The notes under the pieces were generated by a model. That model searched no databases. It had not been told where the DNA came from and saw only the letters and a program-made list of their open reading frames with translations. A stretch of 49,227 bases of DNA. It comes from an uncultured Candidatus Bathyarchaeia archaeon. GTDB lineage: Archaea > Thermoproteota > Bathyarchaeia > Bathyarchaeales > Bathyarchaeaceae. Position numbers and translations under genes: made by a program. How positions within the stretch are numbered: the stretch's first letter is position 1; each line of letters opens with the position of its first letter. Shown piece by piece: positions 13,199 through 48,944 of this stretch. The stretch is taken from positions 1 through 49,227 of the forward strand of contig CAYFXU010000002.1 of NCBI GenBank assembly GCA_964347145.1, given 5' to 3'.

Positions 13199-13224
13199 CG
13201 ATCGCGATAATTCTGGTTGGGTTC

Positions 13225-16042: not shown

Positions 16043-16245
16043 TTCATAATCTCCTCCTTCAACCTTTTTTAGACGTGAGAGGCAAAGGTATGGAGGCGCA
16101 CACACAAAAATCTTTCCCACCAGCCTCTCGCGTCTTTTTCTATATTTAGTTGAGGAAAATAGGCTAAACCATAAGGCAAAAATTAAAGTTGCTCCAACCT
16201 ACAAGACAATCTACGAGAAGTGGCGACTGGCTGGGCGAAGCGAAG

Positions 16246-16830: not shown

Positions 16831-16870
16831 TCGATGGAAAAGAAAAAGGTGGAGAATTACTGAGTGCTTC

Positions 16871-26593: not shown

Positions 26594-26824
26594 ACCCGAT
26601 GCGTAGACTTATTGAACACAACGTGGACATCTTAAGTTTTTCGCCGAATTTTTAGCAGTATCTAATTTATAAAGTTGTTTTACATCTTATGCAACTCTTC
26701 ATTACCAACTTTTGACAGCTGCGAAGAAAACAACAAATAAATTGAAAGAAACGCTTTTTAGGAGCAAGATTTCTTTAAGGTGCTAAATACGAAATTATAA
26801 GGTTGGTTAATACAGGCGATTAAC

Positions 26825-34860: not shown

Positions 34861-35322
34861 ATGAACAAGAACAAAATATCCTACTCGACCAATGAGGTGA
34901 AAGGTTTGGTTAAAGTAGATGACTATGAAGTGCCTGAAGGATTATACTACCACAAGGAATACCTGTGGGTACGCGTGGAAAAAGGAAAAGCAAAGATTGG
35001 CATGAGCGACTTCGCCCAAAAACAGCTTCGAGAAATCGTTTACGTCGAGCTTCCTAGCGTAGGCGACACTATCACCCAAAATGATCCCTTCGGAACGGTG
35101 GAATCCGTGAAAGCAGTCTCAGACCTAGTTGCTCCCATAAGCGGCACGATAGAAGACGTAAATCAAGAATTAGAGTCTAAACCAGAACTACTCAACGAAG
35201 ACCCGTACGACAAGGGATGGCTCCTAATGGTGAGCCCAACAAATCTTGACGTGGAATTAAAAGAAATTATGGACTTCAACGCGGCGGTGGAGTGGCACAA
35301 AGAACTCATAAAAGGAAGCTAA
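34861..35322 (+). CDS. gcvH: Glycine-cleavage H-protein family lipoyl carrier
   Basis: 153 aa. Carries the lipoyl-lysine motif TVESVKAVSDLVAPISGTI, plus YHKEYLWV and EDPYDKGWL. It has a ~20-aa N-terminal extension. It reads AQKQLREIVYVELP where the canonical sequence is AQ..LGD.VFV.LP. Confidence 0.88.
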   Translation: MNKNKISYSTNEVKGLVKVDDYEVPEGLYYHKEYLWVRVEKGKAKIGMSDFAQKQLREIVYVELPSVGDTITQNDPFGTVESVKAVSDLVAPISGTIEDVNQELESKPELLNEDPYDKGWLLMVSPTNLDVELKEIMDFNAAVEWHKELIKGS

Positions 35323-35465: not shown

Positions 35466-35654
35466 ATGGGAAAGGTCGAAGACCAAATCATTTCAGTGCT
35501 GGAAAACTCAAAAAAGCCTCTTGGTCTCGTTGAAATCGCCGATCAAATCGGGAAACCAACGAAAACAGTTTTCAAATCCTTGCGAAAGCTTTTTCAAAAA
35601 GGAAAAGTCGACTTCGACGCCAAGAGTCGTCAATATATGCTTGCCAAAGAATAG
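35466..35654 (+). CDS. Small winged-helix (wHTH) DNA-binding-like protein
   Basis: 62 aa. VLENSKKPLGLVEIADQIGKPTKTVFKSLRKLFQKGKV has a helix-turn-helix plus wing pattern like MarR/ArsR-type recognition modules. Confidence 0.45.
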   Translation: MGKVEDQIISVLENSKKPLGLVEIADQIGKPTKTVFKSLRKLFQKGKVDFDAKSRQYMLAKE

Positions 35655-35674
35655 ATAATGCAATGATCACAGGC

Positions 35675-36514
35675 TTAGTATTCTTTTGGCATCATCTCAA
35701 ATTCTTTGTAAGAGAAGACCGGACCGTCTTTGCACACGAACTTGTTTCCTATGTTGCATCTTCCGCACTTTCCGATGCCACACTTCATCCTCATCTCGAG
35801 GGATAGGAAGACATCCTCGGGAGAGAATCCGAGCTCGTTAATGACCGGCATTGTGAACTTTATCATTATAGGCGGGCCGCATACAATGGCGATAGCGTTG
35901 TCTGAGCTTGGGGCAACCTCCTTGAGAACGGTGGGGACAAAGCCAACCAATCCGGTCCATCCAGGGACAGCGCGGTCTATAGTCACATTGAGGTTGATGT
36001 CATCTCTGTTCCCCCAAGCCTCAAGGTCGTATTTGTAGATGAGTTCGCCTGGGTTGCGGGCTCCGTATATGACTGTTAAATCTTTGAACCTATCTCTGTT
36101 GGCTTCATGAAGAATGAATTTGGTCAGAGACCTCAGTGTTGTGAAGGCGAAGCCTCCTCCGACAATCACAACATTGCGACCTTCCATTTCCTCTAGTGGA
36201 AATCCGTTGCCGTATGGTCCTCTGACTCCGATAACCGTTCCTTCTTCGCTGTTGTGTAAAGCGGTGGTGACGACTCCGACTTTTTTCACTGTGAATTGAA
36301 TGCAGTCTTCGTCCATAGGAGATGAGGCTATTCCTATGGGGCACTCCCCAGTTCCGAATACAGAGATTTCTGCGAATTGACCGCATCTGTATCTGAAGCC
36401 CTTGATTGCCTCCGGGTCTTTGAAAACGAGCTCAAAGGTCTTTATGTCGTTCGCCTCGTTTTCTGTTGTGACCTTTCTGACGACCACAAGACTTGGGATG
36501 TAAGGATTGCTCAT
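35675..36514 (-). CDS. FAD/NAD(P)-binding [2Fe-2S] oxidoreductase subunit (FlxA / sulfhydrogenase gamma HydG / AsrB / PyrK family)
   Basis: 279 aa with FAD-binding RYRCGQFAEISV, an NAD(P) Rossmann VVIVGGGFAFTTLRS and the C-terminal cluster motif CGIGKCGRCNIGNKFVCKDGPVF. Confidence 0.8.
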   Translation of the reverse strand: MSNPYIPSLVVVRKVTTENEANDIKTFELVFKDPEAIKGFRYRCGQFAEISVFGTGECPIGIASSPMDEDCIQFTVKKVGVVTTALHNSEEGTVIGVRGPYGNGFPLEEMEGRNVVIVGGGFAFTTLRSLTKFILHEANRDRFKDLTVIYGARNPGELIYKYDLEAWGNRDDINLNVTIDRAVPGWTGLVGFVPTVLKEVAPSSDNAIAIVCGPPIMIKFTMPVINELGFSPEDVFLSLEMRMKCGIGKCGRCNIGNKFVCKDGPVFSYKEFEMMPKEY

Positions 36515-36517
36515 TCT

Positions 36518-37552
36518 CTATTTCTCCTCTCTGGTTGAAATTGCTCTGACTACTTCTCTAATGTCAAGGTTCACAGGACACTCCTTGACACATCTTCCAC
36601 AACCCACGCAGAAGCTGTCGCCATGGTTCTTGACGAAATAATTGAACTTGTGCATTATCCTCTGTCTCATCCTCTCTTTTCCTGAAGGACGAGGATTATG
36701 CCCAGACCCTTGCAACGTGAAGCAAGAAAATTGACAGGAGTCCCAGATCCTGACCCTTTTTTCTTCTTCAGTTTCTTCCAGAATGTCAAAACAGCAGCAT
36801 GTGGGACAGAGGAAGGTGCAGACCCCGCAGCCTAGGCACTTCTGACATGTCTTGTCCCAAAAAGGATCGTCAAACATTCTGTCGAGTTTTTCGCTCACAC
36901 CTTTAAAAGAAAACCTAGACTCCACAGCGCTTTCAGCGCGTTCGGATAGCTTGTTCGCCCGCTCCAAGTCCACTTTTTTCGCATCTTTCAGCCACGGAAA
37001 CTCTTTGACGAGTTCCTCGCCTCTATCAGAGACTGTTTCTATTAGATACTTATCGTTTATGTCTTGGAAAAGCAGGTCCAAGCCTTCTTTCCCGAAAGGA
37101 CTTCCTCCAAGGGATGTGCAGAAGCATGTACTCAGAGGATGATTGCACGCCAATCCGACTATTGTTGTGTTCTTCCTCTTCTCTAAATAATACACATCTT
37201 TGTGTTCCCCTGAAGAGAGGAAACTGTCCAGCAAAACGAAGCTTCTGGCATCGCAGGGACGGACACCTAATAGCACCCTCTTTCCATTTCCAGTGGAAGA
37301 CTCTACAATTTCTACGTCTTTCTTGTCAATTTTAAACGTGAATAGAGTCTCGGTTTGCGGAAAGAAAACCTCTTTGGGAGGCTTCTTTGTATTGCAGAAG
37401 TTGAGGTAGGCCTGGTTTTCGGGGGAGAGCCTTTCAAATGACACGATACTTTTTTCCTTGACTGGCACGAAAACCTCGTATTCTTCAGCCAGTTCTCCAA
37501 TGAGGACGGGCAATTTGCTTTTTTCAATTACCTTCCACTTCATTGGAAACAC
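36518..37552 (-). CDS. Iron-sulfur subunit (FlxB / sulfhydrogenase beta HydB / AsrA family)
   Basis: 344 aa with CQKCLGCGVCTFLCPTCCCFD and CVGCGRCVKECPVN. Starts are GTG 37552 or ATG 37543. Confidence 0.7.
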   Translation of the reverse strand: MFPMKWKVIEKSKLPVLIGELAEEYEVFVPVKEKSIVSFERLSPENQAYLNFCNTKKPPKEVFFPQTETLFTFKIDKKDVEIVESSTGNGKRVLLGVRPCDARSFVLLDSFLSSGEHKDVYYLEKRKNTTIVGLACNHPLSTCFCTSLGGSPFGKEGLDLLFQDINDKYLIETVSDRGEELVKEFPWLKDAKKVDLERANKLSERAESAVESRFSFKGVSEKLDRMFDDPFWDKTCQKCLGCGVCTFLCPTCCCFDILEETEEEKRVRIWDSCQFSCFTLQGSGHNPRPSGKERMRQRIMHKFNYFVKNHGDSFCVGCGRCVKECPVNLDIREVVRAISTREEK

Positions 37553-37558
37553 CCCGTT

Positions 37559-38509
37559 TCACTTGATGAACTCCTGAGGATCCTCCATTTTGAATTCTCC
37601 CAATGGAGGAACCGCTTCAAGGCTTACTCCCGCTTCGTAGCCATACCGCTCTTTCATGATTTTTTCAGTTTTCTTCACGAGCTCCCTCAGGTTTATTCCC
37701 ATAGGACAAGCTCGACTGCAGGCTCCGCAATCCACGCACCTCCCGGCCACATGAAAGGCGCGTACGATATGGTAGATCATGGTGTCTGAAAGGTCGTTAG
37801 TCTTGCCGAACCACACCGGCATAGTTTGGTCGACACAGCACATTTTGCAGTAGCATAGGGGACAAACGTTCCTACATGCATAGCACCTGATGCATTTGCT
37901 CAGTTCCTCCCTAAAATGTTCCCACCTCTCTTTCGCTGACTTGGACTCAAAATTAATAACTTCAGCGAACTCGTTAGTGTCCGGGATTTCAGGCACCTTT
38001 TCTCCTACAAATACGTCGCAGATAGGTGGATTCCTGTGCTTGCAGGTTAGACACGAATCGCAGAGGAAATCCTTTTTCGGCAATGTCAGCTCAAAACCCT
38101 CTCCCTTAACCTTGACCTGTTCATCTTCGACGACTGCTTCAAGGACATCTTTACCCTCGAGTTCTGCCTCTATTTTTTTTCTATCAATTATGCCCAGACA
38201 AGGAACACCTATTATGACTACATTTTCCCGCTGAAACTGCTTCTCTATGGCACAAACAGCTATCAACCGTGCGTCGCAACCTTTTGCGACAATTCCTACC
38301 TTTACATTCTTACCTATTACGTATTTTGAAAGATTGGCGTCACAGATTGCGTTCCAAACGAGCTTATGAACTTCCTCTGTGTTGTCCACAAAGCAGGGAG
38401 TAGTGCGGAGAGGTAAGCTTCCTTGCTCATATCCTATTATCAAGTCGACCTTCTTCTCGCTGAGAAGTTTTTTCGCGATCTCTCTCATCGAATTTTCAAT
38501 GTTTTCCAT
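37559..38509 (-). CDS. 2x[4Fe-4S] ferredoxin-domain subunit (FlxC-like) with an uncharacterised N-terminal domain
   Basis: 316 aa with CIRCYACRNVCPLCYC and CVDCGACSRACPMG. Its ATG overlaps the mvhD stop by 14 nt. Confidence 0.6.
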   Translation of the reverse strand: MENIENSMREIAKKLLSEKKVDLIIGYEQGSLPLRTTPCFVDNTEEVHKLVWNAICDANLSKYVIGKNVKVGIVAKGCDARLIAVCAIEKQFQRENVVIIGVPCLGIIDRKKIEAELEGKDVLEAVVEDEQVKVKGEGFELTLPKKDFLCDSCLTCKHRNPPICDVFVGEKVPEIPDTNEFAEVINFESKSAKERWEHFREELSKCIRCYACRNVCPLCYCKMCCVDQTMPVWFGKTNDLSDTMIYHIVRAFHVAGRCVDCGACSRACPMGINLRELVKKTEKIMKERYGYEAGVSLEAVPPLGEFKMEDPQEFIK

Positions 38510-38945
38510 GTGCCATCTCCCTCTTCACCAGTCTCTTGGCGGGTCCTAAAGTCTTCACCGTTTCTACCACTTCCGTCACAACTTTGGCAAACTTTTCACC
38601 TTCAGCAGCTGAAACCCATGAGAAGTTTACCCTTCCAGGATCAATCCCCACATACCCCAACAAGTCCTTCAAGACAGCAAACCTCCTTCTGGCCACAAGG
38701 TTCCCGCTGATGTAGTGGCAGTCTCCCGGATGGCAGCCAGAAACCAACACCCCATCCCAGCCGTGCTGCAGGGCCGTTATGATATAGTATGGATTGACTC
38801 GCCCGGAGCATGGGACTCGGATGATTCTTATGTTAGGAGGATATTGGATCCTGCTTATCCCGGCAAGGTCTGCTCCGGCGTAGCTGCACCAGTTGCACAG
38901 GAAAGCTAGTATTTTTGGCTCCCATTCTTCTTCGGCAGTTTTCAT
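38496..38945 (-). CDS. mvhD: MvhD/FlxD-type [2Fe-2S] electron-transfer subunit (methyl-viologen-reducing hydrogenase delta family)
   Basis: ILAFLCNWCSYAGADLAG...VPCSGRVNP...DGVLVSGCHPGDCHY. The ATG at 38945 lies 5 nt after the hdrA stop, with GAGGTGA spanning that stop. The track's 38978 start lies inside hdrA. Confidence 0.88.
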   Translation of the reverse strand: MKTAEEEWEPKILAFLCNWCSYAGADLAGISRIQYPPNIRIIRVPCSGRVNPYYIITALQHGWDGVLVSGCHPGDCHYISGNLVARRRFAVLKDLLGYVGIDPGRVNFSWVSAAEGEKFAKVVTEVVETVKTLGPAKRLVKREMAHGKH

Positions 38946-38950
38946 TTTAG

Positions 38951-41900
38951 TCACCTCAGCGCGGCTATGACCGAGCATATCTGGTGGTCAGTAAAGCCTT
39001 TGATATCTATGGCTGAGCACCTGCAAGTAGCTGCGCAGGCTCCGCATCCCTTGCATAGGGCGCTGTTCACCTTCGCTGTTCTTCCTATCTTAGTCTCCTC
39101 GATCTCCATAGCATTGTACGCGCATACCTGTATGCAAAGCTCACACGCCGTGCATCTGTTCGGGTTGACAGTGGCTACGATTCCCTCGGCCTCGATTGTG
39201 TCTTTAGCCAGCACAGTGCATGCCCTGGAGACGGCGGCCTTGGCCTGAGAGATACTCTCTTCCATGGATTTTGGGGAATGAGCCATTCCGCATACGAAGA
39301 TGCCGTCTGTGGCAAAGTCGACAGGTCGAAGCTTGGCGTGTGCCTCCAGAAAGAAACCATCTTCGTTGATCGGAACCTTCAGCATCTTGGCCAAAATCTC
39401 GTTTTCTTTGGGTGGAATCACGGCTGCGCTCAGAACGACGATGTCCGCGTCTATCAGGATGTCTTCTAGAATGGTTGGCTCAAAGACCGAGACCTGCAAG
39501 CGCTCCTTTCCTTCTGATTGGACCTTCTGAACCTTCGGCTTGTTTTCTTCGTCGTAGCGGATAAAAACTACTCCAGCTTCTCGAGCTTTTCTGTAGTGTT
39601 CTTCTTTTAGACCGTACGTTCTTATGTCCCGATAAAGAACATACACGTTGGCTTCTGGGTCCTTTTCCTTTACTTTTAAGGCATTCTTGACCGCTTCTCC
39701 ACAACACATTCTGCTACAGTAGGGGCGTTCATCACACCTGGACCCGACACATTGAATCATCACCACATTGCCAAACTTTTCTTCAGCGTTGGCTACATTG
39801 CGTTCCTCCAGTTCTAGTTGCGTTAGGACGCGGGGGTCTTCACCATAAAGGTACTCGTTTGGATGATATTCTTCACCGCCAGTAGCAACGATAATGACGC
39901 CATGTTCCAGTTCTTTTTTTGCTTCACTGCTCGAGTTTTGATTCACTGTAGTTTTAAAGTTCCCTACGTACCCGGAGACATTCTCGACCTTTGTGTCTAG
40001 AAAGACTTGGATCAGTTCGTTTGAGTTTACCTTTTCAATAATTGTTTTGATGTAGTCTCGAGTGTCCTCACTGTCCAATGTGTAGTGGATCTTGCGGAGG
40101 AATCCCCCAAGTTCTTTGTTCTTCTCCACCAAATAAACTTCGAAACCTTGTTCAGCTAGGGCTAGAGCCGCAGTCATGCCTGACAAACCACCCCCGATAA
40201 CGAGTCCACGGCGGGTGACGTTCAGAGAAAGCCGCTCCAAGGGGGTCAGCATTCGAGCCTTTGCCACCACCATTCTCACCAAATCCTTCGCCTTCTCGGT
40301 TGCGGCTTCGTGAACATGCATGTGAACCCAAGAGCACTGGTCTCGGATGTTCGCCATCTCAAAGAGATACCGGTTCAGGCCAGCCTCCTTTATGGTTTCC
40401 TGAAAGAGAGGTTCATGTGTTCGCGGTGAACATGAGGCAACCACAACCCTGTTGAGACCGTATTCTTGGATATCCTTCTTTATCCGCTCTTGAGTGTCTG
40501 AAGAGCATGTATAGAGGTTGTCGCAGGCGTGGACGACGTTTGGAAGAGTTTTGACATACTCCACCACACTTGGAACATCGACAACACCTCCAATGTTGAT
40601 GCCGCAATGACAAATGAAGACTCCTATCCTAGGCGGTTGTCCTCTAACATCAATCTCTTTTGGGAACTCTTTCTTCTTAACCAAGCTTCCTCGAACTGAA
40701 GATAGCAACTCACCGACACAAGAAGCAGCCGCGCTGGCTTGAGTCACAGTCTCGGGAATATCCTTGGGCGAGGAAAGCATGCCGCAAACGAAAACTCCAA
40801 GCCTTGAAGTTTCCATAGGGTTGAAGGTTTGGGTTTTGCAGAAACCGTATTCATTCAACTGAACACCGAGGTTTTTGGCTAACTTCTTAACATTCTCGGA
40901 AGGGGTGAAACCGATTGAAAGGACAACTAGTTGAAACTCTTCTTCAAGGAGTTTTCCATCTTCAGTCTCATACCTTATTCTCAGATTCTGGGTCTCAGGT
41001 ATCTCTTCTATTCCAGACACTCTACACCTGACGAATCTCACTCCGTACTCGTCTTTAGCCCTCTCGATGTATTTGTCGAAGTCCTTTCCGTACGCTCGTA
41101 GGTCTATGTAGAAAATAGTTGGTTCAATCTGGTTCATGTGTTCCTTGGCTATTACAGCTTCCTTTGTGGCGTACATACAACAGACTGAAGAGCAGTAGCC
41201 GTTCCCACAAGTGACGTCTCTTGAGCCGACGCATTGTACAAAAGCAATTTTCTTGGGGATGTCTCCGTCTGATGGTCTTTCCACTCGTCCCATGAAGGGA
41301 CCAGAAGCACTCAGTATGCGCTCGAACTCAATGCTTGTGACCACGTTGGCGTATCTTCCGTAACCATACTCGCTTTTCAATTTGGCGTCAAATTCTTCAG
41401 CGCCGGGGGCCAAGATGACTGCGCCAACATTCAGTTTACCCTCTTTCTCTTGGTCTGAGTAGTTTATGGCGTCCGCCAGACAGATGTTTTTACAGAGCCC
41501 GCAACCCATGCACTTCTCTCTGTCGATCATATAAACCAGTGGAACAGCTTGCGGGTAATCTATGTGGATTGCGGACCTCTCGCTCAAGCCTTTGTTGAAG
41601 GTATCTATAGCCTCTACTGGACAAAACTTGGCGCACAATCCACAACCTGTGCACCTTTCCATATCAACGTATCTTGGCCGTTGTTTAACTGAGACGTTTA
41701 GGTTGCCTGCCTCTCCAGAGATTCCCGTAACCTCAGAACAAGTCAACACTTCAATGTTCAGGTGTCTTCCACATTCCACGAGCTTTGGAGACAAAATGCA
41801 CATGGAGCAGTCGTTTGTTGGGAACGTCTTGTCTAGCCTCGCCATGACTCCGCCTATGGCAGAGGAATTGTCCACTACGTAGACTTTGAAGCCTGAATCT

Positions 41901-42001
41901 GCCAGGTCAAGCGCCGACTGTATTCCTCCGATTCCCCCGCCCACAACTAACACGGAACCTACTTTGTTTTCTTCAGAAAGTGGGTTTTTTGGGTTCACCA
42001 T
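38951..42001 (-). CDS. hdrA: Fused double HdrA-like flavoprotein: QmoA-like module with inserted ferredoxin domain plus canonical HdrA module
   Basis: 1016 aa with two FAD dinucleotide motifs (VLVVGGGIGGIQSALDLADSG and GLVIGGGLSGMTAALALAEQG). Other motifs are DKTFPTNDCSMC, two CSSVCC/CSRMCC motifs, an internal HdrA N-domain motif IGVFICHCGINIGG, and four CxxCxxCxxxCP-type ferredoxin motifs. Confidence 0.9.
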   Translation of the reverse strand: MVNPKNPLSEENKVGSVLVVGGGIGGIQSALDLADSGFKVYVVDNSSAIGGVMARLDKTFPTNDCSMCILSPKLVECGRHLNIEVLTCSEVTGISGEAGNLNVSVKQRPRYVDMERCTGCGLCAKFCPVEAIDTFNKGLSERSAIHIDYPQAVPLVYMIDREKCMGCGLCKNICLADAINYSDQEKEGKLNVGAVILAPGAEEFDAKLKSEYGYGRYANVVTSIEFERILSASGPFMGRVERPSDGDIPKKIAFVQCVGSRDVTCGNGYCSSVCCMYATKEAVIAKEHMNQIEPTIFYIDLRAYGKDFDKYIERAKDEYGVRFVRCRVSGIEEIPETQNLRIRYETEDGKLLEEEFQLVVLSIGFTPSENVKKLAKNLGVQLNEYGFCKTQTFNPMETSRLGVFVCGMLSSPKDIPETVTQASAAASCVGELLSSVRGSLVKKKEFPKEIDVRGQPPRIGVFICHCGINIGGVVDVPSVVEYVKTLPNVVHACDNLYTCSSDTQERIKKDIQEYGLNRVVVASCSPRTHEPLFQETIKEAGLNRYLFEMANIRDQCSWVHMHVHEAATEKAKDLVRMVVAKARMLTPLERLSLNVTRRGLVIGGGLSGMTAALALAEQGFEVYLVEKNKELGGFLRKIHYTLDSEDTRDYIKTIIEKVNSNELIQVFLDTKVENVSGYVGNFKTTVNQNSSSEAKKELEHGVIIVATGGEEYHPNEYLYGEDPRVLTQLELEERNVANAEEKFGNVVMIQCVGSRCDERPYCSRMCCGEAVKNALKVKEKDPEANVYVLYRDIRTYGLKEEHYRKAREAGVVFIRYDEENKPKVQKVQSEGKERLQVSVFEPTILEDILIDADIVVLSAAVIPPKENEILAKMLKVPINEDGFFLEAHAKLRPVDFATDGIFVCGMAHSPKSMEESISQAKAAVSRACTVLAKDTIEAEGIVATVNPNRCTACELCIQVCAYNAMEIEETKIGRTAKVNSALCKGCGACAATCRCSAIDIKGFTDHQICSVIAALR

Positions 42002-42002
42002 C

Positions 42003-42788
42003 TTAGCTCACCTCTTTTCTTCGATACTTTGGGCTATTTCCTTCTATTCCTGCAACAGAGACTAACCCAGCGCGCTCGAGAGAAGTCATGTTTCTTAGCA
42101 CTTCGCTCGGAGAGTTTCCCACTTTTTTAGCTATTTCCCTGACGGAGAGGGTGTCTTTTCCCAGGGAGAGTAGGATTCTTCTTTTTGCAAGCTCTTTTTC
42201 GATGGTTTGGAACATCAGTTGATCGAATTCTTCTTGAGGGACTTTCTCCCCAAAGACGTTTTTATCCTCCACAAGCTCCATTTCTCTGCCCATGAGCCAT
42301 CTGATTCTCTGTTGGGCGAGGGCTTCCTTGGCTGCTAATAAGCGTGCTTTCAAATGTTCGAGTTTCATGTCTGTTTCTTTGCCTAGTGGACCTAGTTTCT
42401 TCACTCTTTCTGTGAATTCTTTCACCAGAGTTGCGAAGCGTTCACCCTCAGCGGCGGACACCCATTCAACTATCACCCGATCAGGAGACAATCCCACGTT
42501 TTTGAGGACATTTTTGGTTGTTTTCATTCTTCTTTTCGTGTAGTAGTTTCCGGTAATGTAGTGGCAGGTTCCCAGGTGGCAGCCCAAGACCATGACGCCG
42601 TCTAGACCTTGGATGAAGGCTTCAAGAATGATGGTTGGGTCAACCCTTGCTGAGCACATTACTCGGATAATACTTACATTGGGGGGATATTGCATACGGC
42701 TGACTCCCGCTAAATCCGCTGCGGCGTACGAGCACCAGTTGCAGAGGAACCCCAGGATTTCTGGTTCAAAATTCCTCTGAGAGGTCAA
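42003..42788 (-). CDS. MvhD-domain protein fused to a C-terminal winged-helix domain
   Basis: 261 aa. Residues 1-135 are MvhD (ILGFLCNWCSYAAADLAG, VMCSARVDP, DGVMVLGCHLGTCHY). Residues about 195-261 read ILLSLGKDTLSVREIAKKVGNSPSEVLRNMTSLERAGLVSVAGIEGNSPKYRRK, an ArsR/MarR-like wHTH pattern. The TTG start overlaps the upstream stop (TTGA), with GGAGGT 9 nt upstream. Confidence 0.8.
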   Translation of the reverse strand: MTSQRNFEPEILGFLCNWCSYAAADLAGVSRMQYPPNVSIIRVMCSARVDPTIILEAFIQGLDGVMVLGCHLGTCHYITGNYYTKRRMKTTKNVLKNVGLSPDRVIVEWVSAAEGERFATLVKEFTERVKKLGPLGKETDMKLEHLKARLLAAKEALAQQRIRWLMGREMELVEDKNVFGEKVPQEEFDQLMFQTIEKELAKRRILLSLGKDTLSVREIAKKVGNSPSEVLRNMTSLERAGLVSVAGIEGNSPKYRRKEVS

Positions 42789-44458
42789 GGTGTAACCTCC
42801 GCTAGGGCAACTACTTGTGCAACAAGCTGCTCATTGGTAAAGTGTCTCATAGTGATTGCCATCTGCGGACATCCAGCTCCGCATGCCCCACAACCCTTGC
42901 AGGAAGCGGCTATCACCTTGGCTTTCCTTCCCTTCTCGGTTCTTTCAACATGTATTGCCTTGAAAGGGCAAGTCATCTCGCACAAGCCGCAACCGGAGCA
43001 TTCTTCCTCATCAATCATCGGGATTAAGGGCTCGGTTTTCACGCGTCCAACTGACATAGGTATAGACGCTCGAGAGGCTGCGCCGTACGCTTGGAAAATG
43101 CTCTCACTGATGTTGGCCGGCCAATGGGCGCAACCGCACACATAAATGCCGTCCGTGGCGAAGTCGACGGGTCGAAGTTTAACGTGGGCCTCCAGGAAGA
43201 AGCCGTTCTCGTCAACTGGTACTTTCAGTTTCTGTGCGAGGTCTTTGGAGTCGTTGTAGGCGACCATTGGCGTTGAAAGCACGACGAGATCGTAGGGCAA
43301 TACGAGTTCTTCGCCCAGGAGCTCATCGTAGGCTCTGATCGACCCATTCTCGAGAACTGGTTGCCTTTGAGGCGAGTATTTTATGAATATTACGCCCGTT
43401 TCTCTCGCTTTTCCGTAGTAATCTTCATACTTTGTTCCTTGGGTTACAATGTCTCTGTATAACACGAAAACCTGGGCATTTGGGTTTGCTTCTTTAATTA
43501 ACATCGAGTTTTTGAGGGCGGCTAGGCAACAAACCTTAGAGCAGTAGGCCCTTTGTTCGTTCCTCGATCCTACACATTGGATCATCACAACATTGTCGGC
43601 GTTGATCCTTCCCTTCTTCAGCATTTGTTCCAGTTCCAGTTGGGTGACAACGGTTTTTCCATTGTAGCCATACATGCCCACGGGCTTGAGTGACTCAGCA
43701 CCTGTTGCTATCACGATCACTCCAGCCTTGAATAGCCTCTCCTTTTCTCCATTCCCTATCGTGACGTCATAATTGCCGACGAAGCCTTCAACTTCTTTAA
43801 CTTCGGAAGATGTCAAAACCTCTATCTCAGGGTTCTTCCGAACTTCCTTCGTCCTCTCCTGAACCAGCCTTGAAGCTTCTTCATTTGTTGGATAAAGCTT
43901 GTAGAGGTTATTTAGAGTTCCACCCAATTGGTTCTCTTTCTCTATCAGCTTCACTTCGAAGCCGCGGTTAGCTAGACTGAGGGCACAGGTCATTCCCGCG
44001 ATCCCTCCTCCAATTACCAAGGCGCAGGGATTAACCGCAATCTCAGTCTCTTCCAAAGGTTCCAGCAACGCTGCCTTTGCGACTCCCATCCTTATTAGGG
44101 CTTTTGCCTTTTCAGTTGCCTTCTCCCTCTCTTGCATGTGGACCCAAGAGCATTGGTCTCTTATGTTTACGAATTGAAAGAGGTAGGGGTTTAGTTCTGC
44201 CTCCTTGCAGGTTGACCTAAATAGAGGTTCGTGAGTTCTTGGGGTGCAAGACGCTACGACCACGCGGTTCAACTGTTTTTCCGCTATGGCGTTTTTTATT
44301 TCTGTTAATCCAGCCTCGGAGCAGGTATACTGATTGTCTTGAGAGAAGACAACGTGAGGCAAACTCAAGGCGTATCTAGTGAGTTCCGGAACGTCGAGAA
44401 ATCCTGCTATGTTCGTTCCGCAGTGACATACAAAAACGCCCACTCTAGCTTCATCCAA
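42785..44458 (-). CDS. hdrA: HdrA-like flavoprotein, module B (HdrA N-domain + FAD domain + C-terminal ferredoxin domain)
   Basis: 557 aa with VGVFVCHCGTNIAG, RDQCSWVH, ALVIGGGIAGMTCALSLANRG, CSKVCC, CSGCGLCEMTCP and CKGCGACGAGCP. It is colinear with residues about 455-1016 of the 1016-aa paralog. TTG start, with AGGTGA upstream. Confidence 0.9.
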   Translation of the reverse strand: MDEARVGVFVCHCGTNIAGFLDVPELTRYALSLPHVVFSQDNQYTCSEAGLTEIKNAIAEKQLNRVVVASCTPRTHEPLFRSTCKEAELNPYLFQFVNIRDQCSWVHMQEREKATEKAKALIRMGVAKAALLEPLEETEIAVNPCALVIGGGIAGMTCALSLANRGFEVKLIEKENQLGGTLNNLYKLYPTNEEASRLVQERTKEVRKNPEIEVLTSSEVKEVEGFVGNYDVTIGNGEKERLFKAGVIVIATGAESLKPVGMYGYNGKTVVTQLELEQMLKKGRINADNVVMIQCVGSRNEQRAYCSKVCCLAALKNSMLIKEANPNAQVFVLYRDIVTQGTKYEDYYGKARETGVIFIKYSPQRQPVLENGSIRAYDELLGEELVLPYDLVVLSTPMVAYNDSKDLAQKLKVPVDENGFFLEAHVKLRPVDFATDGIYVCGCAHWPANISESIFQAYGAASRASIPMSVGRVKTEPLIPMIDEEECSGCGLCEMTCPFKAIHVERTEKGRKAKVIAASCKGCGACGAGCPQMAITMRHFTNEQLVAQVVALAEVTP

Positions 44459-44465
44459 GTTCCTG

Positions 44466-45758
44466 TCACCTCATGACAATCTCTGCGGCCCGCTCGGCTG
44501 CCCCACTCGCTTGGGCTACAGACTCGGGTATGTCCGTTGGTTCTCTGCAGCACCCGCACACGAATATTCCTGGTTTAGTTGAGTCCAACGGGTTTAAATG
44601 ATCAGTTTTGAAGAAGTTGTATTCATCAAGCTCGGTTCCCAGAGCCTTTGCTAACTCCTCCACACCTCTTCTCGGCATCAGACTGGTTGCCAAAACCGCC
44701 AAGTCCACAGGCATTTTCTTTGTTTCTGAGGTTTGAATCTCTTCATACCAAACTATAGGATTCTCATTTCGATCTTCGGTTATCTTGGCAACCCGACCTC
44801 TAACGTAAGATATATTGTATTCCTGCTCTCCTCTCGCTACGTATTTTTGGAAACCCTTCCCCGCCGCCCGAAGGTCCATGTAGAATACGTAGGACGTCAC
44901 GTTTGGGTCGTGTTCATAGGCGAGCATGGCCTCTTTAGTTGCGTGCATGCAACAGACGGATGAACAGTAACGGTTGTTTCTAAGGTCTCTAGACCCAACG
45001 CACTGTATGAAAGCAATGTTTTCCGCGGGCTTTTTGTCTGAGGGTCTCGTGAGGTGTCCTCCAGTGGGCCCTGAAGCACATATCAGTCTCTCGTACTCTA
45101 GCGACGTGATCACGTTTCGGTACCTTTTGTAGCCATATTGAAGAATCCCGGAAGGATCGAAGGGGTCAAAACCTGTGGCGACGATGATGGCGCCAACGTG
45201 CAATGTTACATCCGTGTCTTCCTGCTCAAAGTCGATAGCCTTTCTGGTGCAAAATCTCTCACATATTCTGCACACACCCCTCGTTAGGAAAAGGCAGTTT
45301 TCCCTGTCAATGGTCATGGCTGCTGGAACTCCTTGAAGGTAGTATGGGTATATGGCTTCCCTCCTTCTCAGTCCCATGTCAAATTCGTCAGGCACCTTTA
45401 CGGGGCACTTTGCGGCGCATTCTCCACAGTTGACACATTCGCTTTCCTTTACGAATCTGGCATACTTGCGTAACTTCACCGAGAAATCTCCAATCCGGCC
45501 CATAACGTTCTTGACCTCCGATAGGGTGTGGAGGGTTATGTTGGAGTGTCTGAAGCAATCGGCTAGTTTGGGAGATAGTATACATATGGAGCAGTCGTTT
45601 GTTGGGAAGGTCTTGTCAAGTTGAGCCATCCTTCCACCTATGGCTGGCTTCCTCTCAACCAAGTGCACCTTGATCCCCATATCTCCGAGGTCCAGAGCTG
45701 CTTGGATGCCGGCTATTCCACCACCAATAACGAGGACTGGCCTAGGCTTTTCCTCCAA
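44466..45758 (-). CDS. hdrA: HdrA/QmoA-like flavoprotein, module A (FAD domain with inserted ferredoxin-like domain)
   Basis: 430 aa with VLVIGGGIAGIQAALDLGDMG, DKTFPTNDCSIC, CVNCGECAAKCP and CSSVCCMHATKEA. It is colinear with residues 1-450 of the 1016-aa paralog. TTG start, with GGAGGAAAGG upstream. Confidence 0.88.
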   Translation of the reverse strand: MEEKPRPVLVIGGGIAGIQAALDLGDMGIKVHLVERKPAIGGRMAQLDKTFPTNDCSICILSPKLADCFRHSNITLHTLSEVKNVMGRIGDFSVKLRKYARFVKESECVNCGECAAKCPVKVPDEFDMGLRRREAIYPYYLQGVPAAMTIDRENCLFLTRGVCRICERFCTRKAIDFEQEDTDVTLHVGAIIVATGFDPFDPSGILQYGYKRYRNVITSLEYERLICASGPTGGHLTRPSDKKPAENIAFIQCVGSRDLRNNRYCSSVCCMHATKEAMLAYEHDPNVTSYVFYMDLRAAGKGFQKYVARGEQEYNISYVRGRVAKITEDRNENPIVWYEEIQTSETKKMPVDLAVLATSLMPRRGVEELAKALGTELDEYNFFKTDHLNPLDSTKPGIFVCGCCREPTDIPESVAQASGAAERAAEIVMR

Positions 45759-46887
45759 GGTCCTTTCCTCCAGCCAATTCAGAGAGTCTCTCCTCGGCTC
45801 TCATTCTCTTCCTTCTGGCGAAGGAGACAAGTTTAGCCATCATTTTCGTCTTTTCTATCCTGCTCTCCTCCGCATTTTCGAAGGTTCTTTCTTGGATGTA
45901 GCCCTCACGGAGGGCTTTGTCGTAAACCGACGCACCTAATTTTGACCTTATCAGGGTTGTGGTGAATCCATCAGGTGAACCAAGTCCTCCAACAGAAATG
46001 TCTGCATATTCGTTGTTGAAGTCTTTACAAGTGAAGCATGCTGGACGGGCAACTTCGTGTACCTCTTCCAATGGGACATGGATTGTCACGCCCTTTGTGA
46101 GGGAGATTACGAAATCGTCCTTGATGTTTAGCTTGACAATCTTCTCCAAGTTTAAGTCAAGTTTTTTTTCCAACATTTCTCTCGCTACGTCATCAAAGGA
46201 GAAGTTTTCTATGCAGAATAATCCTATTGTATACCTTATGAGGTGGGCCGGGATAATGCCAAGGCACTGCATCTTTCGAATCGCGTTGATTTGGCATGGA
46301 GTTCCAACCACCGCTATGTCATGCAGGTACCCTTTCTCCAAGCTTTTTACCGTGGACAGGATCGGAGTATAGGTAGTGTATTTTCCCCCCAGTTCTTCTA
46401 GGTGAAGGGATCCTGAGAACGTGGAGCCCGCCGCTTCGATGAGTTCCTTAGGTGTTCTAGCAACTATCGCCTTTCTTGCGAAGCGTCCGACCTTCTTTGA
46501 GACGATTGCACCATTTATCAGATTGCGCTCCAATAAATATAAGAGAATGGAGGTTACCACCCCTCCGTCCGTGCAAATCTCCTTCACGTTCTCATTCGTC
46601 GTTTGAGCGGAAGTTATCCTCTGATAGTCTCCTATTGGGGGTTTCCACCCAAACTTCTCTTGGAGTTCTACGTTTAGGGTGTCCGTTTGGGGGCATATGA
46701 GGTAGCATATTCCGCATTTTAGACAGTTATCCTCGTTAATATATCGTGGGACCTCATTCTTGCCCATTTCTAGGGCGTTCAGTTCTCCTGCTGAGCAAAA
46801 GGAGACGCATCCGCCACATTTACCGCATATTCCCTTTTCAATTACTTCTTCGGTTAGGTCTTTGAATGTCTTGATCTCTTCCTCCAT
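45742..46887 (-). CDS. FrhB/FdhB/FpoF-family F420-interacting iron-sulfur flavoprotein with an N-terminal 2x[4Fe-4S] ferredoxin domain
   Basis: 381 aa with CGKCGGCVSFCS and CLKCGICYLICPQ, followed by the FrhB-type core (IAVVGTPCQINAIRKMQ, GLFCIENF, CFTCKDFNNEYADISVGG). Confidence 0.8.
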   Translation of the reverse strand: MEEEIKTFKDLTEEVIEKGICGKCGGCVSFCSAGELNALEMGKNEVPRYINEDNCLKCGICYLICPQTDTLNVELQEKFGWKPPIGDYQRITSAQTTNENVKEICTDGGVVTSILLYLLERNLINGAIVSKKVGRFARKAIVARTPKELIEAAGSTFSGSLHLEELGGKYTTYTPILSTVKSLEKGYLHDIAVVGTPCQINAIRKMQCLGIIPAHLIRYTIGLFCIENFSFDDVAREMLEKKLDLNLEKIVKLNIKDDFVISLTKGVTIHVPLEEVHEVARPACFTCKDFNNEYADISVGGLGSPDGFTTTLIRSKLGASVYDKALREGYIQERTFENAEESRIEKTKMMAKLVSFARRKRMRAEERLSELAGGKDLGGKA

Positions 46888-47031
46888 GAGAACCCAAACC
46901 TTAGAACGTTAGTATAGTTTTGTGGAATTATTTAAGGAATTCTTTCTCAATACTGGAGAATAACAAATATAAAGAGGCGAGGTAACCCTATAGCTTCTCG
47001 TGAAGTGAATATGTCTAGGAGAAATTGACCC

Positions 47032-48381
47032 TTGCCTAGGAAAATAGTAATTGTTGGCGCCAACGCTGCTGGTGTCCATGCAGCCAACGCGGCCCGCAAA
47101 ACCGATCCCAAGGCTGAAATAACCCTTATAGATAAAGAGCCATATCCAGCGTACTCTCGTTGTGGTATACCGTATGTATTGGGGGGCGAGATCCCTACTT
47201 TTGATGACCTTATGGCCTTCCCTCCATCTCACTATAGAATGATGAAGTTTGATCTACGCCTTGAAACCAAGGCTAGATCCATAAACCCAAGTGACAAAAT
47301 TGTTCTGGTTGAAGATAATGAAGGAAACTTTGAAGCGCTAAAATATGATTCATTGATTCTCGCAACTGGGGCTGATCCATTTGTCATACCGATAGAAGGT
47401 CACAACCTTCCAGGGGTGTTTGCGATGAGGACTGTGGATGACGGAAAGGCAATACAAGAGGCAATCAAGACGGCTGAGAACGCTGCTGTTGTAGGCGCAG
47501 GGTTCATTGGCCTAGAAACGGCACATGCCTTCGTAGCAAGTAAAATCAAAACCACAATCATTGAATTGGTGCCATATATTCTTCCTGCATTATTTGATGA
47601 AGATATGGCCGATTACGCACAGAAGAAGATGGAAGAGCATGGCGTCAACGTGGTAGTGGGCAGACGGGTAGACGCAATTCTAGGAAAAGATAAGGTTGAA
47701 GGCGTGAGCGTAGGCGGCGAAGAAATCAAAGCAGATGTTGTTGTTATGGCAGCAGGAATTAGACCTAGAACAGACTTGATAAGAGGACTTGGAGTCGAAC
47801 TGGGCGTCACCAGAGCTATTAGAGTCAACCCAAGAATGGAGACAAGCGTCTCTGACATATTCGCAGCTGGAGACTGTGTGGAGTCTCAAAGCTCGATTAC
47901 AGGGCTACCGTGTCTTTATCAACTTGGAACCAATGCAGTTAGGCAGGGGACGGCCGCTGGAGTCAATGCCGCAGGAGGGTACGCTTCCAATCCTCGCGTG
48001 ATATGCAGTGCAGTTTCAAAGATTTTCGATTTTGAACTTGGTGCAGTTGGTCTCTCAGAATATCAAGCTGCCAAGGTGGGTTTCCGAACAGTCAGTGCAA
48101 GCATCACGGGAAGAACTCGGGCACCATACTTCCCCGGCGGAAAAGAAGTCAGAGTAAAGATTATTGCTGAACCGATTTTGGGAAGAGTTATGGGAGCCCA
48201 ATTGGTCGGTGGAGAAGATGTGGCGCAGAGAATTAACATGCTCTCTGTGGCGATACAAAAGGAAATGACGGCATTGGAGCTCTCAGCGGCAGATACCAGT
48301 TACGCTCCTCCAGTAGCTGAGACCGTTGAACCAGTAGCAACAGCCGCTGAGATCGTCGCAAAGAAGATACGGCGGCGTTAG
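47032..48381 (+). CDS. Pyridine nucleotide-disulfide oxidoreductase of the single-cysteine NADH oxidase / CoA-disulfide reductase / NSR type
   Basis: 449 aa with a TTG start. Motifs are KIVIVGANAAG, a single active-site-position Cys in YSRCGIPY, a second Rossmann AAVVGAGFIGLE, and AAGDC. Confidence 0.85.
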   Translation: MPRKIVIVGANAAGVHAANAARKTDPKAEITLIDKEPYPAYSRCGIPYVLGGEIPTFDDLMAFPPSHYRMMKFDLRLETKARSINPSDKIVLVEDNEGNFEALKYDSLILATGADPFVIPIEGHNLPGVFAMRTVDDGKAIQEAIKTAENAAVVGAGFIGLETAHAFVASKIKTTIIELVPYILPALFDEDMADYAQKKMEEHGVNVVVGRRVDAILGKDKVEGVSVGGEEIKADVVVMAAGIRPRTDLIRGLGVELGVTRAIRVNPRMETSVSDIFAAGDCVESQSSITGLPCLYQLGTNAVRQGTAAGVNAAGGYASNPRVICSAVSKIFDFELGAVGLSEYQAAKVGFRTVSASITGRTRAPYFPGGKEVRVKIIAEPILGRVMGAQLVGGEDVAQRINMLSVAIQKEMTALELSAADTSYAPPVAETVEPVATAAEIVAKKIRRR

Positions 48382-48434: not shown

Positions 48435-48944
48435 ATGTCAGGAACTGCGCGCGAGCGCTCGAAGGTTGAATATATGAAAGTTGACACCTACGACATTCCT
48501 GAAAATTATTATTACCTCAAAGAACACGAGTGGGTCTTAATAGAAAACACTGACACCGCGAGAGTTGGCATCACGGATTACGCTCAGAAAGCGCTGAGGG
48601 AGATTACATACTTTTACGTCGGGAAGAGGGGTGCCAAAGTCAAACGGATGGAGACAATTTGCAGAATAGAATCCGTAAAATGTGTCGCCGAGATATTAAG
48701 TCCGCTTTCGGGGGTGGTTCTCAGATTTAATAACGCATTAGCTGACACTCCGGGCATTATAAATCAAGACCCTTATGGCAAAGGATGGATAACAATTATC
48801 CGCCCCGCAAACCTTGACAAGGAACTAGAAAAACTGTTAGAAACAGAACTTTACGCGGAGCATATTAGGCAGCTTACCAGAATCGACGAAACTCTATTGA
48901 TTCATAGATGGAAAAAGGGGATAGGAGAAAAAACGGGCGAATAA
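48435..48944 (+). CDS. Divergent GcvH-family lipoyl-carrier paralog (LbpA-like candidate)
   Basis: 169 aa, or 156 aa from the ATG at 48474. It retains HEWV, the lipoyl-lysine context RIESVKCVAEILSPLSGVV and QDPYGKGW. It lacks the canonical LGD.VFV.LP.VG, reading ALREITYFYVGKRG instead. It carries a ~40-aa C-terminal extension. Confidence 0.8.
   Translation: MSGTARERSKVEYMKVDTYDIPENYYYLKEHEWVLIENTDTARVGITDYAQKALREITYFYVGKRGAKVKRMETICRIESVKCVAEILSPLSGVVLRFNNALADTPGIINQDPYGKGWITIIRPANLDKELEKLLETELYAEHIRQLTRIDETLLIHRWKKGIGEKTGE

Follow-up and report, generated by a model that had tools for sequence, protein, structure and literature searches.

A nine-gene operon of a Bathyarchaeia archaeon that combines two asymmetric HdrA units with F420-type and NAD(P)H-type modules of a putative electron-bifurcating system

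The DNA analysed here (the window) is a stretch of 49,227 nucleotides (nt) from an uncultured Candidatus Bathyarchaeia archaeon, positions 1 to 49,227 of contig CAYFXU010000002.1 in assembly GCA_964347145.1. Bathyarchaeia, like Asgard archaea, are abundant sediment anaerobes. Between positions 35675 and 46887 the minus strand of the window carries nine consecutive open reading frames (ORFs), called here g1 to g9 in order of transcription, which, to judge by their tight packing, form one operon. All nine had been named in an earlier reading of the bare sequence (the original prediction), and all are present at the positions given there. Profile annotation of each ORF with Pfam and NCBIfam reproduces the domain order and the composition proposed at that time: a FrhB module of the F420 type is combined with two HdrA/MvhD units, each with two flavins, and with an NAD(P)H module resembling FlxCBA. 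In our interpretation, to which we give an even chance of being right, the operon encodes the flavin and iron-sulfur (FeS) core together with two donor modules of a flavin-based electron-bifurcating system of the heterodisulfide reductase (HdrABC) type, and would be an archaeal, two-input relative of FlxABCD-HdrABC.

The junctions between the nine genes were re-derived from the sequence. g1 and g2 overlap by 17 nt (45742–45758), a spacer of 7 nt separates g2 from g3, g3 and g4 share a TTGA overlap (42785–42788), and a single nucleotide lies between g4 and g5. The longest ORF of g6 begins at 38978, which would give an overlap of 28 nt with g5. However, we take the ATG at 38945 as its start because a GAGGTGA Shine-Dalgarno (SD) sequence stands just upstream of it, at a distance of 5 nt; the g5/g6 spacer is then 5 nt, and in relatives MvhD begins 5–7 nt past the fused HdrA. 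g6 and g7 overlap by 14 nt. For g8 a GTG start leaves a spacer of 6 nt after g7 and the ATG at 37543 one of 15 nt; the ATG is more likely, since FlxB has 341 residues and follows a 16-nt spacer in the related loci L001 and L082. The last two genes are 3 nt apart. Thus every junction of the original prediction could be reproduced, with two small start-site corrections at g6 and g8. SD-like motifs near the junctions and three TTG starts had also been pointed out, and we see the former (GGAGG, GAGGTGA or GAGAGGAG) ahead of g2–g7 and g9 and the latter in g2, g3 and g4; inspection of the sequence upstream of g1 revealed no SD motif. Upstream of the operon lies a divergent intergenic region of 144 nt (46888–47031) that is a likely site of promoters for both the operon and an oppositely oriented flavoprotein gene. 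A crude regular-expression scan of the minus strand from 35600 to 47100, which is weak evidence by its nature, found TATA-like motifs only at 46973 and 46935, upstream of g1; the nine genes look as if they share one promoter. No tRNA genes were found in a scan of the whole window.

Both HdrA units of the operon are asymmetric. The first is split between two genes. g2 (44466–45758, 430 residues), which covers positions 140–561 of the NCBIfam HdrA2 model, represents an 'a' half: its thioredoxin reductase (TrxR)/flavin adenine dinucleotide (FAD) domain contains TNDCSIC as the Cys197 motif, an inserted ferredoxin domain and the TrxR-domain [4Fe-4S] motif are present as well, and it has neither the N-terminal domain nor the C-terminal ferredoxin domain. 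g3 (42785–44458, 557 residues), which covers positions 1–230 of the HdrA2 model and 326–652 of the HdrA model, is a 'b' half with an N-terminal cluster domain (CxC, SCTPR, QCSW), a TrxR/FAD domain and a C-terminal ferredoxin domain with two [4Fe-4S] clusters, and its TrxR/FAD domain has neither Cys197 nor the inserted ferredoxin domain. The second unit is the single gene g5 (38951–42001, 1016 residues), in which an 'a' half (residues ∼15–435) precedes a 'b' half (residues ∼456–1016). Accordingly, g5 aligns to HdrA of M. wolfeii (5odc_A) in three pieces, residues 18–381 falling on 147–511, 456–627 on 3–174 and 871–1008 on 505–642, and it has the Cys197 motif at residue 62 only and the motifs of the N-terminal domain at 462–558 only. 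g2 is 46% identical to the N-terminal half of g5, and g3 is 47% identical to the C-terminal half. The division of features is the same in both units, with the NDCSxC motif and the inserted domain in the 'a' halves, the N-terminal cluster and C-terminal ferredoxin domains in the 'b' halves, and neither Cys197 nor the inserted domain in the latter.

The feature set that M. wolfeii HdrA (type I) holds in one polypeptide is thus divided here between two halves. All four TrxR domains nevertheless keep GxGxxG, the Cys motif HA4 (QCVGSR...CC) and equivalents of E356 and K409, two residues named as key for bifurcation (Lyu 2025 PMC12054007). Such complementarity was taken to mean obligate heterodimers or pseudo-heterodimers in the tandem and fused HdrA of anaerobic methanotrophic archaea (ANME) (Chadwick 2022 PMC9012536), and the fused form has been termed type II HdrA (Lyu 2025 PMC12054007). 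By sequence, g2/g3 and g5 belong to this asymmetric tandem/fused architecture, which is already catalogued in ANME. Owing to the asymmetry of the halves, each unit should contain a single complete bifurcation site, its other flavin being accompanied by the TrxR-domain cluster only. No solved type II HdrA was matched; the HdrA matches in the PDB are single-TrxR-domain chains throughout. With a split asymmetric HdrA placed in series with a fused one, the architecture would be new to biochemistry, known here from its genes.

The gene at the head of the operon, g1 (45742–46887, 381 residues), encodes an FrhB/FwdI-like subunit of the F420-type oxidoreductases. An N-terminal ferredoxin domain with two [4Fe-4S] clusters is followed by the FrhB_FdhB_N/C flavin/[4Fe-4S] domain, both parts of which score above the Pfam cut-off (FrhB_FdhB_C, E = 2.8e-38; FrhB_FdhB_N, E = 7.6e-16). 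FwdI is the top match among solved structures (8rja_E, E = 4e-52, over the full length) and FrhB is also matched (6qgr_B, E = 2e-36); the motifs GTPCQ, GLFC.ENF and C..C.DF...ADIS.G..GSP align with those of the two proteins. NCBIfam scores stay below the cut-offs for frhB (185.7 versus 331.5) and FpoF (114.9 versus 475). On these profiles g1 is a member of the FrhB/FdhB/FwdI family and not FrhB or FpoF proper. Domain annotation of the window proteins found no frhAG and no fpo genes.

Each HdrA unit is followed by an MvhD gene. g4 (42003–42788, 261 residues; Pfam FlpD, E = 1.7e-55) is a long MvhD, whose [2Fe-2S] domain (residues 6–136) is joined to a conserved C-terminal extension of ∼120 residues that resembles a winged helix (Pfam HTH_20 and HTH_24 at residues 202–245). 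The MvhD chains 8rvu_F and 5odc_D cover residues 6–136 only. The extension occupies residues ∼139–261, window positions 42003–42419 on the minus strand. It is kept in 37 of the loci surveyed below, across archaeal and bacterial phyla, and its coding sequence usually lies just upstream of the gene for a fused HdrA, either joined to MvhD or as a separate ORF of 110–170 residues. It may be a regulator or a structural connector; a single-sequence AlphaFold model of g4 was unusable (mean predicted local distance difference test score of 41). g6 (38496–38945, 149 residues from the ATG at 38945; Pfam FlpD, E = 2.7e-55) is a short MvhD, or FlxD, 55% identical to g4 and with five Cys positions in common.

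The last three genes make up the module resembling FlxCBA. g7 (37559–38509, 316 residues) is FlxC, an FdhB-like adaptor in which a degenerate FrhB/FdhB-like N-terminal part is followed by a C-terminal domain with two [4Fe-4S] clusters. Pfam gives a weak match to FrhB_FdhB_C (E = 1.6e-4). Among solved structures g7 matches the FdhB of Fdh-Hdr supercomplexes (chain 7bkb_E, E = 1.5e-25; also 9t1s_M and 8rvu_E), and the match takes in the C-terminal two-cluster domain of FdhB. Though g1 and g7 both resemble chains of the FrhB/FdhB family, BLAST finds no match between them, so they are not recent paralogs. g8 (36518–37552, 344 residues from the GTG, with the probable start at ATG 37543) is FlxB, a HydB-like FeS subunit (Pfam Fer4_22, E = 1.4e-30) whose top solved match is the beta subunit of Pyrococcus sulfhydrogenase I (9nez_B, E = 2e-46). 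g9 (35675–36514, 279 residues) is FlxA, a HydG-like subunit with the Pfam domains FAD_binding_6, NAD_binding_1 and DHODB_Fe-S_bind, and its top solved match is the gamma subunit of the same enzyme (9nez_C, E = 1.3e-57). Together g8 and g9 are predicted to form an NAD(P)H/FAD/[2Fe-2S] module similar to the beta and gamma subunits through which sulfhydrogenase I is linked to NADP(H). As in Flx-type clusters, FlxA has FAD, NAD(P) and [2Fe-2S] domains, and HdrA, FlxD, FlxC and FlxB (g5–g8) are contiguous.

Since g8 and g9 match AsrA/AsrB and HydB/HydG models and g4 has a winged-helix match in Pfam, one could regard g8/g9 as genuine AsrAB or as a HydBG remnant of a sulfhydrogenase, g4 as a redox-sensing transcription factor, and the whole as an unrelated juxtaposition. 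We consider this very improbable. The Asr, Hyd and Shy scores all fall far short of the curated cut-offs: g8 is below those for ShyB, HydB and AsrA (AsrA, 153.3 versus 323) and g9 reaches 189.1 versus 288.6 for AsrB. Protein domain annotation of the window found no asrC or siroheme subunit and no hydrogenase subunits. The triple FlxC-FlxB-FlxA follows MvhD/HdrA in 16 of 84 loci, a hydrogenase at locus L001 has separate HydB and HydG that are only 36–37% identical to g8 and g9, and the extension of g4 co-occurs with fused HdrA across phyla. AsrAB and sulfhydrogenase were rejected as identities of g8/g9 on the scores, the lack of asrC and the Flx context, in agreement with the original prediction, which had favoured FlxCBA over AsrAB.

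The 84 loci come from a scan for fused HdrA with one genome per species, which gave 80, and from four more that were fetched by exact protein; all were annotated by BLAST against the window proteins. Those from the scan span Bathyarchaeia, Asgard archaea, Thermoplasmatota, Archaeoglobi, Methanoperedens, Dehalococcoidia, Desulfobacterota and others. Many homologs of g5 are ∼1015 residues long with 65–90% identity, and their named sources are Bathyarchaeota/Bathyarchaeia except for one Chloroflexi. The search for the same gene order that the original prediction had called for was successful: the full order g1–g9 is present in at least three further Bathyarchaeia genomes (loci L082, L083 and L084, the last with insertions) and in an Asgard metagenome-assembled genome (L016). 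Its recurrence in these loci shows that the nine-gene arrangement is not due to chance. The layout common to the three Bathyarchaeia loci is hdrC-hdrB, then gcvH and a gene for a flavoprotein with Pyr_redox_2 and dimerisation domains, both on the opposite strand, then frhB-hdrAa-hdrAb-mvhD-hdrAab-mvhD-flxC-flxB-flxA, and finally another gcvH on the opposite strand, while the outer flanks of these loci differ from each other. The module g5–g9 (fused HdrA-MvhD-FlxC-FlxB-FlxA) is found in those 16 loci, some of which belong to Dehalococcoidia, Archaeoglobi and Desulfobacterales (for example Desulfosudis oleivorans), and at least two HdrA units are present in 35 of the 84.

Partners of the HdrA units are exchanged among relatives. 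L001, in which g5 is 89% identical, keeps g4–g9, and its g1–g3 are replaced. Its positions 637–9209 encode the small and large subunits of a group-3 [NiFe] hydrogenase with their own HydB/HydG, a 796-residue HdrA-MvhD fusion and a 660-residue HdrA. In L084 an ORF of 499 residues with Fer4 and Pyr_redox_2 domains (GltD-like) is inserted after frhB (4657–6156), and a third unit of MvhD and fused HdrA lies at 13045–16838. The Asgard loci L008 (13527–15165) and L012 (13493–15130) have MetV and MetF (methylene-tetrahydrofolate reductase) after a split HdrA pair, a long MvhD and a fused HdrA-MvhD, and in L008 hdrC- and hdrB-like ORFs also precede the two-unit core. The alternation of FrhB, hydrogenase, MetFV and Flx partners points to an HdrA/MvhD core that is conserved and whose donor modules can be exchanged.

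Such modularity also suits another explanation, namely that its products are two separate enzymes, co-expressed but with no physical or electronic link. FrhB-HdrAa/Ab-MvhD would then be a ferredoxin:F420 oxidoreductase, bifurcating or not, as proposed for Korarchaeia, and fused HdrA-MvhD-FlxCBA an NAD(P)H-linked Flx-Hdr enzyme. A FrhB-fused HdrA-MvhD set stands alone in L010, many loci have g5–g9 but no FrhB, the upstream half is exchanged in L001, and the number of HdrA units varies from one (L010) through two (the window) to three (L084). Moreover, the co-location of frhB, hdrA and mvhD and a ferredoxin:F420 role were proposed by Vulcano 2023. On the other hand, the two halves of the operon are tightly joined by the g3/g4 overlap and the single nucleotide between g4 and g5. 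The pattern of an HdrA unit, a long MvhD, a second HdrA unit and a short MvhD recurs across phyla, in keeping with the loci that have two or more units. Finally, the position of the long-MvhD extension, typically just upstream of the second (fused) HdrA, suggests a physical link between the units. We regard two unlinked enzymes as an unlikely outcome.

The original prediction had stressed that no HdrBC is encoded in the operon. This is true inside it. However, the window ends (48953–49227, minus strand) within the 3' end of hdrB, as comparison of its translation with HdrB of L083 and L084 revealed. The fragment comprises the C-terminal 90 residues of the CCG-domain subunit, with a CPLC motif of the CCG type, and is 84–86% identical to residues 205–290 of the 291-residue HdrB in these two loci. 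At the matching position L082–L084 have hdrC (166 residues) and hdrB (291 residues, Pfam CCG), so by analogy hdrC is expected just past the window end. Locus L016 of the Asgard genome has the two genes on the same strand as frhB and directly ahead of it, hdrC encoding a ferredoxin with two clusters and hdrB a protein with CCG domains. Among the fused-HdrA loci, 59 of 84 have HdrB or an HdrC-like FeS protein within 10 kb: an HdrB match was annotated by BLAST in 24 and only an HdrC-like FeS protein in a further 35, some of which may be HdrD-type fusions. Since the hdrB fragment adjoins the operon and the position of hdrCB is conserved, a complex free of HdrBC is not the most economical reading.

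From the gene order, domains, cofactor motifs, asymmetry of HdrA, homology to solved subunits and hdrCB synteny observed here, we infer an electron path by analogy with the structures of Mvh-Hdr and Fdh-Hdr, and also substrates, direction and a choice between one supercomplex and two complexes. Details of the path are as reportedly seen in the Mvh-Hdr and Fdh-Hdr structures that are credited to Wagner in 2017 and Watanabe in 2021. The clusters of the proposed HdrA path are likewise described in Chadwick 2022 PMC9012536. In the second unit (g5–g9) NAD(P)H would reduce the FAD and [2Fe-2S] cluster of FlxA, and electrons would reach the [2Fe-2S] cluster of the short MvhD (g6) by way of FlxB and then FlxC, the FdhB-like adaptor. 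From there they would enter the 'b' half of the fused HdrA, first its C-terminal ferredoxin clusters and then its N-terminal cluster, which would be completed by Cys197 from the 'a' half. Bifurcation would take place at the FAD of the 'a' half, one low-potential electron leaving through the inserted ferredoxin domain to ferredoxin and the other through the TrxR-domain cluster to HdrC/HdrB for the reduction of a disulfide. The first unit (g1–g4) would be the same machine built from the split HdrA pair and the long MvhD, with the FwdI-like g1 as a donor or acceptor module for F420. Both units may be reversible, and with one running forward and one backward they would link the pools of NAD(P)H, F420H2, ferredoxin and thiol/disulfide. 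A possible role is the supply of F420H2 to the tetrahydromethanopterin-dependent Wood-Ljungdahl pathway in archaea that have no FrhAG hydrogenase subunits.

Several lines of evidence argue for this HdrABC-type bifurcating system. FlxC resembles FdhB, a subunit of the formate dehydrogenase donor module in Fdh-Hdr supercomplexes. g1 resembles FwdI, which shares its N-terminal ferredoxin domain and has been demonstrated to act as an F420 reductase add-on, and FlxB/FlxA match the NADP(H)-linked sulfhydrogenase pair. The HdrA halves complement each other, and all TrxR domains keep the equivalents of E356 and K409. In addition, hdrCB adjoins the operon, is kept in L082–L084 and is contiguous with frhB in L016, and the module g5–g9 recurs in Dehalococcoidia, Archaeoglobi and Desulfobacterales.

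Other observations weigh against it. hdrCB belongs to a separate transcription unit, ∼2 kb upstream of the operon and with two opposite-strand genes between, and a single hdrCB pair is seen for two HdrA units. The close relative L001 has no hdrBC within 10 kb, and its exchanged upstream half means that the nine genes may be separable modules and not one complex. The FrhB family includes members with other substrates, and since chlorophyll a reductase (5dqr_A) is among the matches of g1, its use of F420 is unproven from sequence. Finally, we know of no Hdr disulfide substrate for non-methanogens.

The placement of hdrCB and the case of L001, which holds the g4–g9 half, are also points in favour of the model put forward in the original prediction. 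As we spell it out, the nine proteins form a self-contained, Nfn-like soluble complex that bifurcates or confurcates electrons among F420H2, NAD(P)H and ferredoxin without a disulfide reductase, for example 2 F420H2 + NAD(P)+ + Fd(ox) = 2 F420 + NAD(P)H + Fd(red), with the Flx module at the high-potential exit in place of HdrBC. Bifurcation that connects two pools of nicotinamide has a precedent in Nfn. Three Desulfobacterales loci (L038, L054 and L056) have fused HdrA-MvhD-FlxCBA and no HdrB match in their flanks, and FlxC and FlxB, as proteins with two [4Fe-4S] clusters each, could in principle stand in for HdrC at the TrxR cluster. Nevertheless, the position of hdrCB is kept in four Bathyarchaeia genomes and is contiguous with the operon in the Asgard genome. 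MvhD directly before FlxC corresponds to the donor side in Mvh-Hdr and Fdh-Hdr, and FlxC is similar to the donor-side FdhB. Also, F420 and NAD(P)H differ very little in potential, which would leave the driving force dependent wholly on pool ratios. With hdrB at the window edge and hdrCB syntenic in L082–L084 and L016, an HdrBC-free complex as originally framed is unsupported, and we hold a self-contained complex of this type to be rather improbable.

The genes around the operon offer a possible answer to the question of the disulfide. Upstream, and divergent from the operon, is a gene for a 449-residue flavoprotein of the CoA-disulfide reductase (CoADR)/NADH oxidase (Nox) class (47032–48381, plus strand; Pfam Pyr_redox_2 and Pyr_redox_dim). 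It has a single redox Cys motif, YSRCGIPY, and its top NCBIfam model is CoA-disulfide reductase, under the cut-off. We rejected dihydrolipoamide dehydrogenase as its identity, as the motif is the single-Cys motif of CoADR/Nox and not CxxxxC. It is followed by a gene for a GcvH-like lipoyl-carrier protein of 169 residues (48435–48944, plus strand; Pfam GCV_H), and a second one, of 153 residues, is convergent with the operon end (34861–35322, plus strand). Both proteins are above the NCBIfam cut-off for GcvH and have the ESVK lipoyl-lysine motif. The pair of flavoprotein and gcvH between hdrCB and frhB is kept in L082–L084, and a gcvH downstream of flxA is found in the same loci and in L001. An ORF of 62 residues (35466–35654, plus strand) between the downstream gcvH and the operon end encodes a small helix-turn-helix (HTH) protein, whose counterpart in L001 has a weak Pfam HTH_IclR match; it is possibly a local regulator. 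Genes for LipS2 (30738–31796, minus strand), LipS1 (32833–33861, plus strand) and an LplA-like lipoate-protein ligase (23703–24512, plus strand) lie within 12 kb, the two components of the lipoyl synthase scoring above NCBIfam cut-offs. With the GcvH genes they make up what, by annotation, is a lipoylation neighbourhood around the operon. GcvH also leads Hdr/Flx clusters in L003 (Thermoplasmatales) and L004 (a distant Bathyarchaeia).

The potential of the lipoamide couple is close to −281 mV. This value is the revised potential of the disulfide that coenzyme M (CoM) forms with coenzyme B (CoB), CoM-S-S-CoB, as cited by Lyu 2025 PMC12054007, so that thermodynamically lipoamide is no worse a candidate than the real heterodisulfide. 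Lipoamide bound to GcvH has been suggested as the Hdr disulfide in Culexarchaeia (Kohtz 2022 PMC9723716). More speculatively, hdrCB, the CoADR-class flavoprotein, the two GcvH, the HTH protein and the operon might form a conserved unit of ∼15 genes in which GcvH lipoamide is the thiol/disulfide couple of Hdr in non-methanogenic archaea, that is, a hub of four pools (NAD(P)H, F420H2, ferredoxin and lipoyl-GcvH). Between one and three asymmetric HdrA units would be chained together in such a hub, with the winged-helix extension of the long MvhD as a structural connector between them. This extended proposal is tentative, and we think it unlikely to hold.

Farther from the operon, the region 24539–29557 encodes a membrane H+-pyrophosphatase (684 residues) beside a P-type cation ATPase (910 residues). 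Further upstream are genes for EF-1alpha, ribosomal proteins S7 and S12, a 3-hydroxyacyl-CoA dehydrogenase and an ADP-forming acyl-CoA synthetase-like protein. As annotated, the energy and acyl-CoA gene content of the window fits a fermentative archaeon.

It should be noted that much of what is described here is familiar in its parts. Flx-Hdr, asymmetric tandem or fused HdrA, frhB-hdrA-mvhD co-location, F420 add-on subunits and GcvH beside Hdr are already known, and as the first three have all been described bioinformatically, the novelty claimed in the original prediction was overstated. Its narrower statement, that this composition is not recognisable as characterised, agrees with the literature searched, where we found no biochemical or structural work on it and only general surveys of Flx or HdrA. 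The arrangement is real and conserved, and it makes a useful target for two open questions, the source of F420H2 and the nature of the Hdr disulfide. The former is unexplained for the archaeal Wood-Ljungdahl pathway when FrhAG is absent, and in Bathy-6, where FrhB is present without FrhAG, it is unknown (Loh 2021). F420 biosynthesis genes were found in all Bathy-6 phylotypes analysed (Loh 2021), a subgroup to which the present host may or may not belong. The Hdr disulfide in organisms without CoM and CoB is a stated puzzle as well (Loh 2021; Vulcano 2023; Kohtz 2022 PMC9723716). A linkage of two units, if true, would explain the origin of F420H2 in Bathyarchaeia with FrhB and no FrhAG. For the donor as well as for the disulfide, the operon and its neighbourhood offer concrete candidates, and the operon, the adjoining hdrCB and the two lipoyl carriers make a defined gene set for heterologous expression.

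Among known systems, g1 can be compared with FwdI and the zeta subunit of acetyl-CoA decarbonylase/synthase (ACDS) of Ca. Ethanoperedens (8RJA, 8RIU). It has the same layout of two [4Fe-4S] clusters at the N-terminus followed by an FrhB-like FAD/[4Fe-4S] domain, an F420 module on an FeS wire. FwdI was shown experimentally to make formylmethanofuran dehydrogenase of this organism reduce F420 (Lemaire 2024 PMC11493965). Unlike FwdI and ACDS zeta, which are attached to Fwd or carbon monoxide dehydrogenase, g1 is the product of the first gene of an HdrA/MvhD operon. In having frhB without frhAG the operon is similar to the FrhB-HdrA-MvhD sets proposed for Methanoperedens, Bathy-6, Korarchaeia and Culexarchaeia. 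In Korarchaeia frhB was reported beside hdrA and mvhD (Vulcano 2023), and the role proposed for these sets is F420 reduction by confurcation or from ferredoxin. Whereas the second donor was left unknown in these proposals, the present operon includes an NAD(P)H module, and it has two HdrA units.

Lipoyl-carrier genes beside Hdr, here with LipS1, LipS2 and LplA nearby, are also a feature of sHdr-LbpA (Cao 2018 PMC6067878) and of the Ehe/HdrA2B2C2-GcvH cluster of Culexarchaeia (Kohtz 2022 PMC9723716). However, the sHdr features of a ∼350-residue HdrA, two HdrBC pairs and sulfur-transferase genes are all absent here, and unlike LbpA of sHdr the GcvH proteins score as canonical GcvH. Membership in sHdr-LbpA was rejected, as adjacency of lipoyl carriers is all that is common; HdrA here is of the bifurcating methanogen type, and sHdrA (6tjr_A) is a weak partial match.

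The HdrA units themselves resemble type II HdrA of ANME and methanogens and HdrA of Moorella MetFV-HdrABC-MvhD, in which the N-terminal domain and Cys197 are likewise lost in a complementary manner and equivalents of E356 and K409 are kept; the two-unit modules with MetFV in the Asgard loci L008 and L012 add to the likeness with Moorella. In contrast to HdrA3/4 (Chadwick 2022 PMC9012536), the order is reversed here, with the Cys197 half first and the N-terminal-domain half second. The partners also differ, being FlxCBA and FrhB here and Molybdop/FdhB or MetFV there. The surveys of Chadwick 2022 PMC9012536 and Lyu 2025 PMC12054007 dealt with methane-metabolising archaea and not with this Bathyarchaeia/Asgard cluster. 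All domains and cluster motifs of HdrA, MvhD and an FdhB-like subunit are shared with MvhADG-HdrABC of M. wolfeii (5ODC) and with Fdh-Hdr(-Fmd) (7BKB, 8RVU). However, HdrA is a full-length homodimer in those structures, whereas here its domains are spread over two different halves, and the donors there are H2 or formate, whereas here they are predicted to be NAD(P)H or F420H2.

The closest functional parallel to our interpretation is FlxABCD-HdrABC of Desulfovibrio vulgaris Hildenborough, for which Ramos and colleagues are said to have proposed, in 2015, a bifurcation driven by NADH in which ferredoxin and a disulfide (of a protein or a thiol) are the acceptors. Shared features are a HydG-like FAD/[2Fe-2S] subunit, two FeS subunits, an FlxD of the MvhD type, HdrA, and HdrBC close by. 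The gene order differs (hdrA-flxD-C-B-A here), as does the host, an archaeon. HdrA is a fused asymmetric double and not a single protein, a second (split) HdrA/MvhD unit and an FrhB-type module are added, and hdrCB is a separate transcription unit. The comparison with D. vulgaris is made by description, while homology at the sequence level, with 34–57% identity, is to the clusters of Desulfobacterales.

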